A stretch of DNA of 64,000 nucleotides. Origin: Krischvirus LF73P4. Within the stretch, counting starts at the first letter, position 1, and the number at the start of each line of letters is the position of its first letter. Made by a program: the position numbers and the translations under genes. Location of the stretch: the sequence record OZ035795.1; one strand, written 5' to 3'. This document shows positions 10,526-29,005 of the stretch, one piece after another. The notes beneath the pieces were generated by a model. That model searched no databases, was not told where the DNA came from, and saw nothing but the letters and a program-made list of their open reading frames with translations.

Positions 10526-10554
10526 TTGACACTGAATAACGGGGGTAGTAAGAT
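10526..10554 (+). promoter_or_regulatory. PeSL-type promoter (hairpin GGGGGTAGTAAGATACTCCC spanning -10)
   Basis: TTGACA 10526-10531, 17-nt spacer, TAAGAT -10 inside the palindrome; leader CATCGAAACGAAAC + AAGGAGAATCAAAATG. Confidence 0.65.
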
Positions 10555-10587
10555 ACTCCCATCGAAACGAAACAAAGGAGAATCAAA

Positions 10588-10806
10588 ATGAAATTTACTT
10601 GCACCGACTCTATCAGCAAACACTTTGTAGTAGGCGAAGTATACGAATCTACTACCATTCGCCAGCGTGACCTGATGGGTCGCCTTTACAATCAGCCAGT
10701 ATTCATTATTGGCGAAGAATTGTTCTACATTGAAAACCGTCCGTGGGTTGCTTTCAATAAACGAGGACGCAAGGTAGCAAAATTCGAACTTGTCATTAAA
10801 AAGTAG
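10588..10806 (+). CDS. hypothetical protein
   Basis: 72 aa ORF behind PeSL promoter and AAGGAG ribosome-binding site. Confidence 0.5.
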   Translation: MKFTCTDSISKHFVVGEVYESTTIRQRDLMGRLYNQPVFIIGEELFYIENRPWVAFNKRGRKVAKFELVIKK

Positions 10807-10835
10807 TTGACAGCATGAAACGGGGGTAGTAATAT
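10807..10835 (+). promoter_or_regulatory. PeSL-type promoter
   Basis: TTGACA 10807-10812, palindrome GGGGGTAGTAATATACCCCC across -10, conserved leader. Confidence 0.65.
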
Positions 10836-10873
10836 ACCCCCATCGAAACGAAATACACTTTAAGGAGAATCAA

Positions 10874-11023
10874 ATGAACAACTTTGACGCGGTACTGAAA
10901 ATGGCAATCGAAACTTACGCGGAGATCTCCGGCGAGAAAGTAGAGGACATTATCAAAGAATGTCAGAACTTTGAAAGCCAGACAGCCAAGAATGTTCAAA
11001 TGTTGATGTTTGCGGTTGCATAA
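10874..11023 (+). CDS. hypothetical small protein (49 aa)
   Basis: ATG behind AAGGAGAATCAA module; below track size cut-off. Confidence 0.4.
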   Translation: MNNFDAVLKMAIETYAEISGEKVEDIIKECQNFESQTAKNVQMLMFAVA

Positions 11024-15536: not shown

Positions 15537-15843
15537 ACAAGTTGATAATATCGCACTTCGTGAAGCACTAAAGAAAATGTTTTCGGTCGGTACTCACTCT
15601 TTGCAGTTTACTAAGAAAGATGGTACTGTCCGTGAGATGATCGCCACGCGAGATCCGGCACTGATGCCGTTTGAAACATACGAAAAGTGGTTAGTTCCGA
15701 ATGTTGAAAAACCGCGTAAAGAATCAGAAACATCTTTGCCAGTATATGAAATTACAGTTGAAGGTTTCCGTAGTTTTGGGCTTGATAGTCTGATTAATGT
15801 AGATGGGCTGACTCCAGCGCAGATCGTCGAAATTTATAAATAA
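15529..15843 (+). CDS. hypothetical protein
   Basis: ATG 15529 overlapping cd stop; 104 aa. Confidence 0.4.
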   Translation: MTEQVDNIALREALKKMFSVGTHSLQFTKKDGTVREMIATRDPALMPFETYEKWLVPNVEKPRKESETSLPVYEITVEGFRSFGLDSLINVDGLTPAQIVEIYK

Positions 15844-15884
15844 TTCATCATTAAACTGTATTGATTTGAAGAGGTAATAAAATT

Positions 15885-16208
15885 ATGACCGTTAAAACTC
15901 CTAAAGCACTTGGTGATTATGTAATTATCGAAGCTAAAGCAGAAAGCGCAGGGACCGAAGTAAAAAGCTCTATGGGGATCATTATTGAGCAAAAGCGCAC
16001 TATGGGTGAGATTCCGCTGGTAGGTAAGATTATTGATATTGGCGAGACGGTAGATAAAGAATTGCTGGGTAAAACTGTTTTACTGCCACATGGAAAGATG
16101 AATAAAGTTCCTCATCCAGACGTTATTAACGGCGTTAAGAAGGAAGAAGAGATCGACCTGAAATGGACTGTAACGCACAAACAGAATATTGTGGTAGTTT
16201 ACGGTTAA
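15885..16208 (+). CDS. 31: co-chaperonin gp31 (GroES-like)
   Basis: 107 aa; pattern shared with T4 gp31 (GDYVIIE, SxGIIIExKR, GEIP, VPHP). Confidence 0.75.
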   Translation: MTVKTPKALGDYVIIEAKAESAGTEVKSSMGIIIEQKRTMGEIPLVGKIIDIGETVDKELLGKTVLLPHGKMNKVPHPDVINGVKKEEEIDLKWTVTHKQNIVVVYG

Positions 16209-16219
16209 TGATTTTAAAC

Positions 16220-16248
16220 GGCGGGAAATAATCCCGCCTATATTTTGG
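16220..16248 (+). terminator. rho-independent terminator after gene 31
   Basis: GGCGGGA/TCCCGCC stem + T-rich tail. Confidence 0.55.
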
Positions 16249-16444
16249 CTATATGATTTTGTAAGTTATTGATTATTAAGGAATTTTATTATGAAAACTA
16301 TGAATGTAAACATCCACGAAATCCATACCGAAGTATTCACCGAAGAAGACCAGTTTGGTGTATGGGTAAATCCTCATTCGATTACTATCGATATTCCTAA
16401 TGACGATTATGATCCGTTCTCTCTGATTAGCGAGATTAGTTTCA

Positions 16445-16924
16445 ATGACTTCTGAAATTGATATCTATGCGGGTGGACCTTATCCATCGGGTGAATTGAG
16501 CAATTTCAATAAAAGACCATTCCGTCTATTTGGTTGCGATATTAACAGCACAGAAGGATTTTTACAGGGGCTAAGATTTAAGAACCCTCAGAGACAAAGA
16601 GAAATCTTTTTGATGCACGGTGGCAAAGCAAAAAGAACCGGAAGAACTGAAAAGATTGAGAATCACATGTTATATTTTCAGGGTCGCCCGATTCATCGAA
16701 TGAGTGAGCATTATTACAGACTGGTACATCTGGCATTTGTTACGATGGCACGGAATAACCCAGAATTTTGTAAAGCATTACTCGCTACCGGAAATAAGAA
16801 ATTGCGTCATAGCATAGGTGGAACTGATCCGTTAAAGACTATATTGACTGAATCGGAATTTTGTAGTATCCTCAATGATATTCGTGAACGTTTAACAAAA
16901 CGAGGTGAAAATGTCAATTCTTAA
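16445..16924 (+). CDS. NADAR-family (YbiA/DUF1768-like) protein
   Basis: 159 aa; ELSNF, TEGFLQGLRF, GGKAKRTGR, LLATGNKKLRHSIGG match NADAR-domain conserved positions. Confidence 0.55.
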   Translation: MTSEIDIYAGGPYPSGELSNFNKRPFRLFGCDINSTEGFLQGLRFKNPQRQREIFLMHGGKAKRTGRTEKIENHMLYFQGRPIHRMSEHYYRLVHLAFVTMARNNPEFCKALLATGNKKLRHSIGGTDPLKTILTESEFCSILNDIRERLTKRGENVNS

Positions 16925-18407
16925 TATCATTAATCAGCTTGCAGCGACCGACAAAACATCGCTGAAAGAAAAGATCCTGAAAGAATCCGCAAGCAATGAA
17001 ACTCTGAAAGAATGCTTTTATCTGGCATATTGCAAACAGGTTACGTTTGGCGTAAAGAAATACGATAAACCATCTCGCTATTCGTCTGTATTGTCTTTAT
17101 CCGGTGCATTGCAGGTCTTTAAAAATAAACTTGCCACGCGTCAAGTAACTGGTAACGCAGCATTACAGCTAGTTACCGATACTCTGACTTGCTTGTCAGA
17201 AGATGATGCTAAAGTTGCAATGATGGTCCTGAATCGTGATCTGGAATGTGGTTGTTCCGCTACTACTGCAAACAAGGTATGGAAGAAACTGATCCCCCAG
17301 CAGCCGTGCCACCTTGCATCGTCATGTTCTGATAAGACTATTGCTAATATCAAGTATCCGGCGTATGCACAACTTAAAAGCGATGGCGCTCGTGGTATGG
17401 CTGATATTGACGGGGAAACATTAGCAATCTATACCCGCTCAGGTAATACCTATCAAGGACTTGATGATTTGTTTGCGGTTTTAGAGCGTCTACGAGGCCG
17501 TGGAATTGTTCTAGATGGCGAATTGGTATATATGCCTACCCTTTCGCAAACACCAGCGCAGAACTTCGTTGAAAGCGTTTATGATGGTACTCTGTCATGG
17601 ATATTTGAAGAAGAGGAAATGCCATTAACGCCAGTAGCGGAAGCAGTGAAAGAATCCGTTGTTGCAGATCGTCAGACCGGAAATGGTATCCTCAACAAAT
17701 CACTTAAAGGAACTATTCCAAAAGAAGAAGCCCAATGTATTGTTTATACTGTCTGGGATGTTATCGACCGTGATGTGTATTACGGAAATGAGAAAGCAAC
17801 GAAGCAATATAAAGATCGATTCGAAGAACTAAAACAGATTGTTGAAGAACTTAACGATCCTCGTGTTCAGATAATCGAAAACACTGTAGTTAACAATATA
17901 GATGAAGCTCGCGAAGTATATCATCGCTATGTAAACATGGGCTTAGAAGGTATTATCCTTAAAAATTTACATGGTGTATTTGAAGATCGCCGTAGTAAAG
18001 ATCAGGTTAAATTTAAAGAAGTGATTGACTTCGACGCGGAAATTGTTGATGTATATCCGCATAGTAAAGACCCCAATAAGGTAGGCGGTTTTACTGTCCG
18101 TAGTGCGTGCGGACGAATGATGACTAACACCGGATCGGGATTGACCGACACCACAACCGAAAAAGGCGATGATGGTATTGAACGTGTGATTCCGTTTGAC
18201 CGTCGAAATGAACTTGACCGAGAAATGTTATGGGCTGACCGTCATAACCTGATTGGAAAAGTTATTGAGATGACATGCAACGGGTATATCCGCAGCAAAT
18301 CACGTAAAGAAGATGAACCGGAGTTCTCTTTATTTCTCCCAATCATCAAACGTATTCGCTACGACAAGACCACTGCAAATACAGTAAAAGAGGTATTCGA
18401 TGTGTGA
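16911..18407 (+). CDS. 30: ATP-dependent DNA ligase
   Basis: ATG 16911; adenylation motif KSDGAR (KxDG), LDGELVY, EGIILKN, C-terminal FLPIxxRxRxDKTxANT as in T4 gp30. Confidence 0.9.
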   Translation: MSILNIINQLAATDKTSLKEKILKESASNETLKECFYLAYCKQVTFGVKKYDKPSRYSSVLSLSGALQVFKNKLATRQVTGNAALQLVTDTLTCLSEDDAKVAMMVLNRDLECGCSATTANKVWKKLIPQQPCHLASSCSDKTIANIKYPAYAQLKSDGARGMADIDGETLAIYTRSGNTYQGLDDLFAVLERLRGRGIVLDGELVYMPTLSQTPAQNFVESVYDGTLSWIFEEEEMPLTPVAEAVKESVVADRQTGNGILNKSLKGTIPKEEAQCIVYTVWDVIDRDVYYGNEKATKQYKDRFEELKQIVEELNDPRVQIIENTVVNNIDEAREVYHRYVNMGLEGIILKNLHGVFEDRRSKDQVKFKEVIDFDAEIVDVYPHSKDPNKVGGFTVRSACGRMMTNTGSGLTDTTTEKGDDGIERVIPFDRRNELDREMLWADRHNLIGKVIEMTCNGYIRSKSRKEDEPEFSLFLPIIKRIRYDKTTANTVKEVFDV

Positions 18408-18873
18408 TAATGAAGGGGCGAAAGCCCCTAAACCTAAAAAATTGTCAAAGAAAGAGCAACGCCAGATCCTGAAAATGAAATATGGTGGACGTTGTGCCTA
18501 TTGTGGCGAGGAACTAGGGGATCGCTGGCACGCAGACCACATCAAACCAGTATTGCGACGCTCAAAGGTAGTCTATGATGAAAATGGACGAATTGCCCGT
18601 AATGATGATGGATCGTGGAAGTATAAGGTTGTAGGAATGCATAAACCGGAACATGATATACTTGATAACATGAATCCGGCGTGTGTGCAATGCAATCTTT
18701 ATAAAAGCTGTATGGGCTTAGAATACTGGCGTAAGTGTATACGCGAGAACTTCCAGAAGTACATTCAGCGCAATATGGGATTGCGAGCGGCTAAACGCTT
18801 TGGCTTGCTGTCAATTCATGACCAGCCAGTAGAATTTTATTTCGAAAAGTACGAGCGCGAAAATAAGGAGTAA
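18400..18873 (+). CDS. HNH endonuclease
   Basis: 157 aa; CAYCGE...HADHIKP...CVQCN (HNH core with zinc-binding cysteines); start overlaps ligase stop. Confidence 0.7.
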   Translation: MCDNEGAKAPKPKKLSKKEQRQILKMKYGGRCAYCGEELGDRWHADHIKPVLRRSKVVYDENGRIARNDDGSWKYKVVGMHKPEHDILDNMNPACVQCNLYKSCMGLEYWRKCIRENFQKYIQRNMGLRAAKRFGLLSIHDQPVEFYFEKYERENKE

Positions 18874-18880
18874 CCATTAT

Positions 18881-19225
18881 ATGTTCTTTCTGTTTATCTA
18901 TATCCTTTTTGTTTTCCTGGTAGGCATGTACGCAAGCCGTTTAAACCGTAGCGTTATCGGTTATGTTATCCTATCATTGATCATTAGCCCGTTGATCACC
19001 TTTATCATTTTGTTGGTGTTGGGTCCAACGAAATCATATGAACAGGAACAAGCAGACAAGCTAAAAGCCGAGATGGTAGAGAAACAATTTGTTCAACTGT
19101 ATCTAGAAAACCCAGATTTTGAGGAAGTTTCCACCCTTAAGCGAATGTATGACGATCTAACACGATACCCTAACTATCGAAATGTGCTGGCTATGGAAGA
19201 AGCCATTAAGCTCATGAAAAAATAA
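18881..19225 (+). CDS. hypothetical membrane protein
   Basis: 114 aa; two N-terminal hydrophobic helices. Confidence 0.45.
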   Translation: MFFLFIYILFVFLVGMYASRLNRSVIGYVILSLIISPLITFIILLVLGPTKSYEQEQADKLKAEMVEKQFVQLYLENPDFEEVSTLKRMYDDLTRYPNYRNVLAMEEAIKLMKK

Positions 19226-19238
19226 TTCAAAAAAGTTG

Positions 19239-19267
19239 TTGACAGGGGATCACGTATCCCCTATACT
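19239..19267 (+). promoter_or_regulatory. PeSL-type promoter (hairpin GGGGATCACGTATCCCC in spacer)
   Basis: TTGACA 19239-19244, 17-nt hairpin spacer, TATACT 19262-19267, conserved leader + AAGGAGAATCAAAATG. Confidence 0.65.
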
Positions 19268-19309
19268 ACACACATCAAAACGAAACACACTTTCTTAAGG
19301 AGAATCAAA

Positions 19310-19588
19310 ATGAGCAACCTGTCTTTCGCTAAAGTAGAAATTTCTAAAACTCGCGGTGGCTTTAAAATCAAAACTTCCAATATCACTTCCTGCCGTGGTT
19401 GCGTCCGGTTTGCGTTCGACTTGGCAGCGAAGCTGGGTATTAAAACCTTTACCGTTGAGAGCGGATCTAACTGGACCACTCTGATTGTTACTGCCGCTTG
19501 GATTAATGGCGAGTATGTGGAAAAAGCATACTTTGACATTTTCTATGACTATGAAGAAAAATGCTTTTATGCACTGCAAGACATGTAA
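19310..19588 (+). CDS. hypothetical protein
   Basis: 92 aa behind PeSL promoter. Confidence 0.5.
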   Translation: MSNLSFAKVEISKTRGGFKIKTSNITSCRGCVRFAFDLAAKLGIKTFTVESGSNWTTLIVTAAWINGEYVEKAYFDIFYDYEEKCFYALQDM

Positions 19589-19598
19589 GGAGGATAAC

Positions 19599-19907
19599 GT
19601 GACAACACAAGATATTGTTAATGTGCTTTATATCTGGACTACTGGTGCAATGATCTCGTATCTAGTATTCTGCTTGTACGCCAGATTCGACAAGGACACC
19701 AAAGAGGTCGATACAGGAGCATTTTGTATTGCTGCAATCGTATGGCCTATAACGTGGACCGTGGTTGATATTGTTATGTGTTATAAAGGATTGAAATGTT
19801 TTGGTTTGATGATTGCTGGTAAACCGGAAGCGAAGCCGCGCAAGCATAAAGGATTTACTCCAAAACAAGAAGACGACGGTCGATATAAACCGGAAGAAGA
19901 TTTTTAA
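19599..19907 (+). CDS. hypothetical membrane protein
   Basis: GTG start after AAGGAGG; two TM segments; C-terminal basic tail. Confidence 0.4.
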   Translation: MTTQDIVNVLYIWTTGAMISYLVFCLYARFDKDTKEVDTGAFCIAAIVWPITWTVVDIVMCYKGLKCFGLMIAGKPEAKPRKHKGFTPKQEDDGRYKPEEDF

Positions 19908-28402: not shown

Positions 28403-28930
28403 ATGAAATCATTAAACCGTAAGCGTAAAGCACAACGACACAAAGAACGAGCTAAAAAGATTGCTATTGAACTGGTTGAGCGTGAGGATAGCTATTTGTC
28501 TACGGGTCGTTTGTATACATTCCATGCATTGATTGATGGTAAGCTAGTGTTGCATAATCATGATTGTTTGGCACTGTTTCACGAGATCGAACCAATCCAT
28601 CGTGAATGGGATGACAACAAAGCAAAAGGACAATATTTCCTTACTTGTTCGTGTGGTCATGCTGGATGTGCTGGATATTGGGAACCTGTTACTATCCGTG
28701 AGAAAAATGATACCATTCAATGGGTCGCCCGTACCCGCGATGGTTATGATAAAGGTGCTGATGGTACTGGCGATAACGTAGTTTACTTTAATCGTGATTG
28801 GTATTATATGGCGCGATGTATGATCCTGTTTTATCTTGACTCGATGCCGTATGAATATTTCAGTTTCCAGAATGGGACCGAACTGACAGGGAAGGAATGG
28901 TCTGACTACATTCGAAAAAATTTAAAATAA
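28403..28930 (+). CDS. hypothetical protein (basic N-terminus, CSCGHAGCAG)
   Basis: ATG 28403 after GTGAGGTGAAT; 175 aa. Confidence 0.5.
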   Translation: MKSLNRKRKAQRHKERAKKIAIELVEREDSYLSTGRLYTFHALIDGKLVLHNHDCLALFHEIEPIHREWDDNKAKGQYFLTCSCGHAGCAGYWEPVTIREKNDTIQWVARTRDGYDKGADGTGDNVVYFNRDWYYMARCMILFYLDSMPYEYFSFQNGTELTGKEWSDYIRKNLK

Positions 28931-28934
28931 ATGC

Positions 28935-28963
28935 TTGACGGGGATCGCGAGATCCCCTATACT
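28935..28963 (+). promoter_or_regulatory. PeSL-type promoter (hairpin GGGGATCGCGAGATCCCC in spacer)
   Basis: TTGACG 28935-28940, 17-nt hairpin spacer, TATACT. Confidence 0.65.
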
Positions 28964-29005
28964 ATATTCATCAAGACGAGATACAACTTTACAGGAGAAT
29001 CAAAT

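Follow-up and report, generated by a model that had tools for sequence, protein, structure and literature searches.

The open reading frame (ORF) at 16445-16924 (+ strand) of the stretch of Krischvirus LF73P4 DNA analysed here (record OZ035795.1; 64,000 nucleotides, hereafter the window) almost certainly encodes a phage NADAR of the AdfN family. Its product, gp30.3, is likely to be a guanine-ADP-ribose (guanine-ADPr) DNA glycohydrolase countering DarTG1. A counter-defence role had been proposed in a first-pass annotation of this DNA, and the proposal gains support, by analogy for the window protein, since the gene is the ortholog of T4 adfN, a published DarTG1 counter. In this analysis, we established the ORF itself, its family membership, the fold of its product, the conservation of residues, synteny, and purifying selection.

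The interval corresponded exactly to an ATG-to-TAA ORF of 159 amino acids plus the stop codon, which we describe as the gene 30.3/adfN ortholog, encoding a putative phage-type NADAR ADP-ribosylglycohydrolase. The four sequence motifs quoted in the first-pass annotation were all found in the translation, at residues 17-21 (ELSNF), 37-45 (EGFLQGLRF), 59-67 (GGKAKRTGR), and 112-126 (LLATGNKKLRHSIGG). The protein was 100% identical to gp30.3 of RB49 (Escherichia phage, Krischvirus, Straboviridae), in which the same ORF is annotated as '30.3, gp30.3 conserved hypothetical protein'. The surrounding region (window 15800-18500) shared 98.7% DNA identity with RB49, and the 4 nucleotide differences located inside gene 30.3 were all synonymous (4/4). 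The gene was present as a single copy in the window and, of the 59 Krischvirus records matching the region at the DNA level, at least 58 contained it in full length; a gp30.3 protein at least 95% identical was encoded in 59 records. A more distant relative (locus L009; 69% protein identity), derived from an independent sequencing run, exhibited the same gene order as the window. Compared with this relative, gene 30.3 had a dN/dS of 0.10 (about 0.1), with dS near saturation. The window gp30.3 is under strong purifying selection, with an Arg in place at position 44.

Matches to Pfam PF08010 (Phage_30_3; 132.5 bits for a cut-off of 36, E=1.2e-38, profile positions 2-138 of 138) and phrog_652 (E=2.5e-45), together with 1665 PF08010-family representatives found at E<=1e-3 in a library of 1.84 billion proteins, place this ORF far beyond chance. 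Using tblastn, gene 30.3 was detected in 1509 phage records, nearly all of them T4-superfamily myoviruses, with host genera including Escherichia, Klebsiella, Aeromonas, Acinetobacter, Vibrio, and others. The assignment to the NADAR family made in the first-pass annotation held, based on a profile alignment with YbiA and on the fold, the significant Pfam match being Phage_30_3. PF08719, the profile suggested there as a check, gave 15.5 bits (E=0.021), below its cut-off of 35.1 bits. Taken at face value, this outcome is one of those named there as refuting the proposal. This miss only reflects the existence in Pfam of a separate model for the phage clade (PF08010); PF08719 reached E<=0.01 in just 12 of the 62 family members, with a best value of 1.1e-6. 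The NCBIfam model 'NADAR family anti-phage protein' was sub-threshold and uninformative (13.8 bits).

When the HMMER family profile was searched against PDB sequences, the match to YbiA was marginal (E=0.025) and restricted to the N-terminal motif, so profile-profile and fold comparisons were needed. With hhalign, the 62-sequence family alignment (A2) was aligned with E. coli YbiA over 136 columns, with a probability of 92.9% (E=3.8e-7). The AlphaFold2 model, built on 12 homologs, had a pLDDT of 94.2 and a pTM of 0.89. It displayed the three-dimensional fold of YbiA/NADAR proteins, in agreement with Foldseek, and the best structural match of the window protein was E. coli YbiA. A nominally significant phmmer match to a D-alanine--D-alanyl carrier protein ligase was also obtained (PDB 7vhv_D; E=3.8e-4, residues 45-151 against its C-terminal part), but was not supported by the fold comparison and is probably due to chance.

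Since YbiA is annotated as an N-glycosidase, this best structural match could point to a YbiA-like metabolic N-glycosidase acting on riboflavin-pathway intermediates, a role that we consider extremely improbable for gp30.3. YbiA (PDB 2b3w) and the Phytophthora nicotianae NADAR (PnNADAR; PDB 8bau), both of the PF08719 type, carry a subfamily-defining Glu in the last strand, whereas the window protein carries a His. YbiA, which is tied to the clearance of riboflavin intermediates and is weaker on guanine-ADPr, also lacks the Lys equivalent to K63, unlike the window protein. Moreover, riboflavin genes were absent near gene 30.3, and the T4 ortholog acts on DNA adducts (PMC11825919, PMC11125620).

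Some PF08010 representatives (among P0073, P0110, P0086, P0114, and P0014) were 400-560 amino acids long. In these longer proteins, Pfam detected LRR_5 and LRR_8 (BspA-type leucine-rich repeats), Lgt (prolipoprotein diacylglyceryl transferase), and an FtsW-like membrane region; one of them exhibited tandem partial repeats of the domain, with loss of the catalytic Glu and Lys. Some of the long proteins may be gene-calling fusions. Pfam scans of the longer family members revealed no ADP-ribose-related fusion partners, and they therefore provided no added functional support.

Residue equivalences were determined by chaining the hhalign alignment to YbiA with a YbiA-to-8bau alignment, in which the 8bau chain index corresponds to the number used in the paper + 2. 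The conserved NADAR Glu was E37 (16553..16555, codon GAA, + strand), equivalent to E36 in T4, E43 in PnNADAR, and E88 in the DarG1 NADAR of E. coli C7. The Glu at this position coordinates the distal ribose (PMC11543638, PMC11825919), and an E was present in 162 of the 170 aligned family rows. The position of the phosphate-binding catalytic Lys was occupied by R44 (16574..16576, codon AGA, + strand), corresponding to K43 in T4, K50 in PnNADAR, and K95 in C7. From the chained alignments, we infer that K63 (16631..16633, codon AAA, + strand) is the counterpart of PnNADAR K75 and C7 K115, at which YbiA has an Ala; a K was found in this column in 147 of 170 rows. In C7, the Lys at position 115 is not needed for catalysis but is needed in vivo against DarT1 (PMC11543638). 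According to the same alignments, R67 corresponds to PnNADAR R79, which contacts the pyrophosphate; like E37, K63, and H122, it was conserved in the family.

The last-strand residue defines NADAR subfamilies: His in phage gp30.3-type proteins, Glu in the YbiA type, and Asp in the DarG1 type (PMC11125620, PMC11543638). In the window protein, it was H122 (16808..16810, codon CAT, + strand), aligned with E125 of PnNADAR, D171 of C7, and the Glu of the YbiA 'LVEH' motif. This residue follows the last strand of the AlphaFold2 model (E119-121); a His was present in 158 of 170 rows and was invariant in alignment A2. The C-terminal alpha-helix (residues 136-155; 16850..16909, + strand) was intact, and was predicted with high confidence in the AlphaFold2 secondary structure.

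The closest characterized relative was T4 gp30.3 (NP_049816), which aligned with the window protein over its full length, up to the T4 C-terminus, with 38% identity (E=2e-30). T4 30.3 has been renamed adfN, for anti-DarT factor NADAR (Johannesman et al., Nat Commun 2025; PMC11825919). In that study, resistance to DarTG1 within the T-even group correlated with a full-length 30.3 allele; the allele of RB69, shortened by 15 residues at the C-terminus, was inactive, and T4 AdfN truncated in the same way had reduced activity. Purified T4 AdfN stripped ADP-ribose off DarT1-modified DNA and did not bind DarT1, rescue was weaker with the E36A and K43A variants, and the thymidine-modifying DarTG2 system was not countered (PMC11825919). 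Independent in vitro work also showed that the T4 phage NADAR acts on guanine-ADPr (PMC11125620, PMC12945103), and a transposon screen classed adfN as conditionally essential when the host carries DarTG1 (preprint 10.1101/2025.11.20.689424). How NADARs work, and through which key residues, has been defined (PMC11543638). The phage NADARs listed in the 2024 study came from three sources: T4, a phage of Klebsiella, and a phage of Rhizobium. It is for the T4 ortholog alone that enzymatic activity, specificity for guanine, and counter-defence against DarTG1 have been shown, and by analogy with it the RB49-type protein would have the same function.

Like T4 AdfN, the window protein belongs to PF08010, consists of the core NADAR domain only (about 150-160 amino acids), shares its strand and its location between genes 31 and 30, and has kept the Glu, the phage-type His, and the C-terminal helix. 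It differs from T4 AdfN by the Arg found in place of K43. The gene context also differs, as 30.2 and 30.1 separate 30.3 from the ligase gene in T4, whereas the window 30.3 overlaps it, and 30.4 lies upstream of 30.3 in T4, at the place of an unrelated ORF of 54 amino acids in the window. The DNA of RB49 contains unmodified cytosine.

Differences were also noted with other NADARs directed against DarT1. The NADARs of DarG1 (E. coli C7; Geobacter/Trichlorobacter lovleyi, PDB 8bat) have an N-terminal extension that was lacking in the window protein, an Asp in the last strand instead of the His and, in C7, K95 instead of the Arg. DarG1 is encoded in an operon with the DarT1 toxin, whereas the neighbours of the window gene were genes 31 and 30, with no adjacent ADP-ribosyltransferase (ART), an arrangement corresponding to an 'orphan antitoxin'. 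The window protein is predicted to work like DarG1 while standing outside the DarG1-type (BC4488) subfamily. T4 AdfN could not replace DarG1 in uninfected cells (PMC11825919). AdfN(Bas32) and AdfN(Bas60), also stand-alone phage NADARs, counter DarTG1 through the removal of guanine-ADPr. These proteins were independently acquired and fall in archaeal-like and bacterial stand-alone-like branches, whereas the window protein belongs to the gp30.3 branch of the T4 superfamily; the Bas32 and Bas60 proteins neutralise DarT1 without phage infection.

The gene order in the window was pseT, cd.2, cd, 31.1, 31 (15885-16208), a hairpin, the 54-amino-acid ORF, 30.3, 30, and an HNH ORF. In T4, the order is 31 ... 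30.4-30.3-30.2-30.1-30, compared with 31 - ORF215c - 30.3 - 30 in RB49, in the window, and at the diverged locus L009. The first-pass annotation had located the gene between gene 31 and the DNA ligase gene, which was accurate on the ligase side; gene 31 is not its direct neighbour, as the 54-amino-acid ORF and the hairpin intervene. Gene 30 (16911..18407, + strand) encodes an ATP-dependent DNA ligase (PF01068, E=2.8e-22; phrog_114, E=1.4e-141). Its ATG at 16911, preceded by GAGG 6 nt upstream, is the start annotated in RB49, which results in a 14-nt overlap with the end of gene 30.3 (stop codon at 16922-16924); a start at the GTG at 16905 would extend the overlap to 20 nt. The first-pass annotation was thus right about the 3' overlap, but the co-expression with DNA repair functions that it drew from this overlap is not functional evidence. 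The adjacency of the ligase gene is lineage-specific, since two genes lie between 30.3 and 30 in T4, and is mechanistically unnecessary, since the hydrolysis restores an intact base.

The ORF of 54 amino acids (16291..16455, + strand), named RB49ORF215c or gp31.-1 in RB49, matched phrog_15277 (E=3.7e-42), which has no assigned function. It overlapped the start of 30.3 by 11 nt, and the two are probably translationally coupled. This overlap and that between 30.3 and the ligase gene both recurred in the diverged relative (L009). We considered whether this ORF could be a diverged form of T4 gp30.4, which occupies the same slot, but found no similarity. As T4 AdfN seems to need a phage co-factor, the 54-amino-acid protein is perhaps worth testing. 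Just after gene 31, a strong terminator-like hairpin with a T-rich tail (GGCGGGA-AATAA-TCCCGCC; 16220..16248, with the hairpin at 16220-16238, + strand; 7 pairs, 6 of which are G-C) separates this gene from the block formed by the 54-amino-acid ORF, 30.3, and the ligase gene. Between the hairpin and this operon, neither inspection by eye nor a scan revealed a convincing sigma-70-type site, MotA box, or late-promoter motif. Downstream, an HNH endonuclease ORF (18400-18873, + strand; PF01844, phrog_2118; RB49ORF212c) shared 8 nt with the end of the ligase gene. This ORF, which has no counterpart in the T4 arrangement, probably represents an insertion of the homing-endonuclease type.

Taken together with the T4 data, these features suggest the following sequence of events. 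During infection of a DarTG1-carrying host, DarT1 would attach ADP-ribose to the N2 amino group of guanine in single-stranded phage DNA, and replication of the ADP-ribosylated DNA would be blocked. The phage enzyme, a putative minimal N-glycosidase of the NADAR fold, made up of just the core domain, would bind the ADP-ribose, with the distal ribose flanked by E37 and H122 and the pyrophosphate held by R44 and R67, and K63 might aid in engaging the DNA. Hydrolysis of the bond between ribose and guanine would then release ADP-ribose and leave the base undamaged, so that replication could go on. The ligase would not be needed for this reaction, because no strand break is made. Weighing against this reading are the limited identity of the tested T4 enzyme (38%), the presence of R44 in place of the catalytic Lys, the lack of in vivo rescue by DarG1 K95R, the sub-threshold scores obtained with PF08719 and the NCBIfam model, the restriction of full T4 AdfN function to T-even infection, and the absence of a convincing promoter downstream of the hairpin. 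The Lys-to-Arg change can nevertheless be compatible with catalysis, to judge from the in vitro activity of C7 K95R (PMC11543638). We searched full texts and supplements and found no published test of RB49, or of any Krischvirus, against DarTG. If the counter-defence reading is right, gp30.3 may be the sole known anti-DarT1 factor of this phage type.

An active NADAR hydrolase might also have a main in vivo substrate other than DarT1-modified phage DNA, such as guanine-ADPr in RNA or soluble ADP-ribose derivatives, the latter being immune signals or by-products of RNA repair. This idea of other substrates for phage NADARs was put forward by Aravind's group (PMC9503650), and every NADAR family tested, the T4 phage NADAR included, also removed guanine-ADPr from RNA (PMC12945103). 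Moreover, gene 30.3 was located about 1.6 kb downstream of pseT, about 3.3 kb downstream of rnlA, and directly upstream of the ligase gene, and a shift in substrate preference could account for the change from Lys to Arg at position 44. We nonetheless consider such a main substrate unlikely. The T4 genetics are direct, as the loss of adfN sensitises specifically to DarTG1 (PMC11825919, preprint 10.1101/2025.11.20.689424), and phage NADAR did not remove ADPr linked to cytidine or thymidine (PMC11825919, PMC11125620, PMC12945103). A soluble substrate has been demonstrated for no gp30.3-type enzyme, and the rnlA/pseT neighbourhood is the ordinary T4-type gene order, with no dedicated operon.

T4 AdfN is fully effective only during T-even infection (PMC11825919), which suggests that it needs a phage partner. 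Using tblastn with T4 proteins, we searched the window together with RB49 1-80 kb and 142-164 kb (102 kb). In the window and these two RB49 segments, no homologs of AdfA (gp61.2), gp30.2, gp30.1, gp30.4, or Alt were found at E<=1. An ortholog of Tk.4, the macrodomain factor against DarTG2 that has recently received the name AdfM, was detected in RB49 outside the window (AY343333, 50040-50495; L007:40-495, - strand), with 44% identity to T4 Tk.4.

This search also bears on whether gp30.3 cleans up nucleic-acid ADP-ribosylation caused by ADP-ribosyltransferases of the phage itself, such as ModB. RB49 encodes ModB, and T4-like phages reportedly express NADAR genes early, with their ADP-ribosyltransferases (PMC9503650). 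Such a function is highly improbable, as Alt and Mod enzymes are not known to act on guanine in DNA, Alt was undetected in the searched parts of the RB49-type genome, and T4 can do without adfN on hosts devoid of DarTG1 (preprint 10.1101/2025.11.20.689424).

The single peculiarity of the window protein relative to the enzymes already tested was the Arg at position 44. Among the 170 aligned family rows, this column contained a K in 159 and an R in only 6. An Arg combined with both the conserved Glu and the conserved His was restricted to the RB49 clade (the window protein, P0001, and P0002) and P0144. In the DarG1 NADAR of C7, the K95R variant kept guanine-ADPr hydrolysis in vitro but lost rescue from DarT1 toxicity in vivo (PMC11543638), and the rescue obtained with T4 AdfN K43A was only partial (PMC11825919). 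These observations, along with the rarity of the Arg, could indicate that the RB49-clade allele is an enzyme weakened by R44 that gives little or no protection against DarT1 and is kept for some other, minor role. However, the Arg has also been kept in the relative with 69% protein identity, at the low dN/dS given above, the remaining key residues are all present, as is the C-terminal helix, and the gene is full-length in nearly all of the Krischvirus records matching at the DNA level. This pattern points to a functional rather than a decaying enzyme, and we judge a weakened allele to be improbable. As strong purifying selection is exerted with the Arg in place, we take R44 to be a tolerated or adaptive variant of a putatively functional glycohydrolase, and not a sign of decay.

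Whether the RB49-type AdfN is also a functionally retuned variant is a more speculative matter, and we regard this as possible but doubtful. The suggestion arises from the fixation of the Arg under selection, the behaviour of DarG1 K95R, and the fact that AdfA, gp30.2, gp30.1, and Alt were undetected in the tblastn search of the window and the two RB49 segments. Retuning might concern the preference for a given adduct or nucleic acid, another DarT homolog, or independence from the T-even co-factor. In that case, a comparison with T4 AdfN could show what sets NADAR specificity in vivo. With the natural Lys-to-Arg variant of Krischvirus phages, a means is already at hand to test why NADARs that are competent in catalysis confer different degrees of protection in vivo.

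The gene itself is known, having been annotated as gp30.3 in RB49 since 2003. The family was predicted to belong to the NADARs in 2012, its in vitro activity was shown in 2024, and it received the name AdfN, as a counter-defence against DarTG1, in 2025. The clade-specific change from Lys to Arg is the sole new detail, as the family, fold, chemistry, and counter-defence role have already been published. Roughly 1500 phage records carry gene 30.3, most of which label it 'hypothetical protein', and the practical value of the present assignment lies in its annotation as 'phage NADAR / AdfN-like ADP-ribosylglycohydrolase'.

Downstream of these genes, within 18700-19900, the window ceased to be collinear with RB49. 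At 19229-19313 (85 bp), the corresponding RB49 coordinate jumped from 123217 to 43041. About 80 kb were missing at this junction; the baseplate genes annotated in RB49 at 62-80 kb are part of this loss, as is, presumably, the remainder of the structural module. The junction was found in one piece in none of the 58 related phage records (0/58), each of which matched it at two separate places. It corresponds either to a repeat-mediated deletion, in which case the genome is defective, or to an assembly collapse at a repeat. The element present at the junction was a repeated cassette (19233-19310), with weaker copies at 28914-29004, 10835-10882, and 10554-10591. It was composed of TTGACA, a GGGGAT-CACGT-ATCCCC stem-loop, TATACT, a leader containing AAGGAG, and an ATG, and was the best sigma-70-like promoter match of the region (11/12). 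We take it to resemble the 'promoter-early stem-loop' (PeSL) mobile regulatory cassettes of RB49-type phages.
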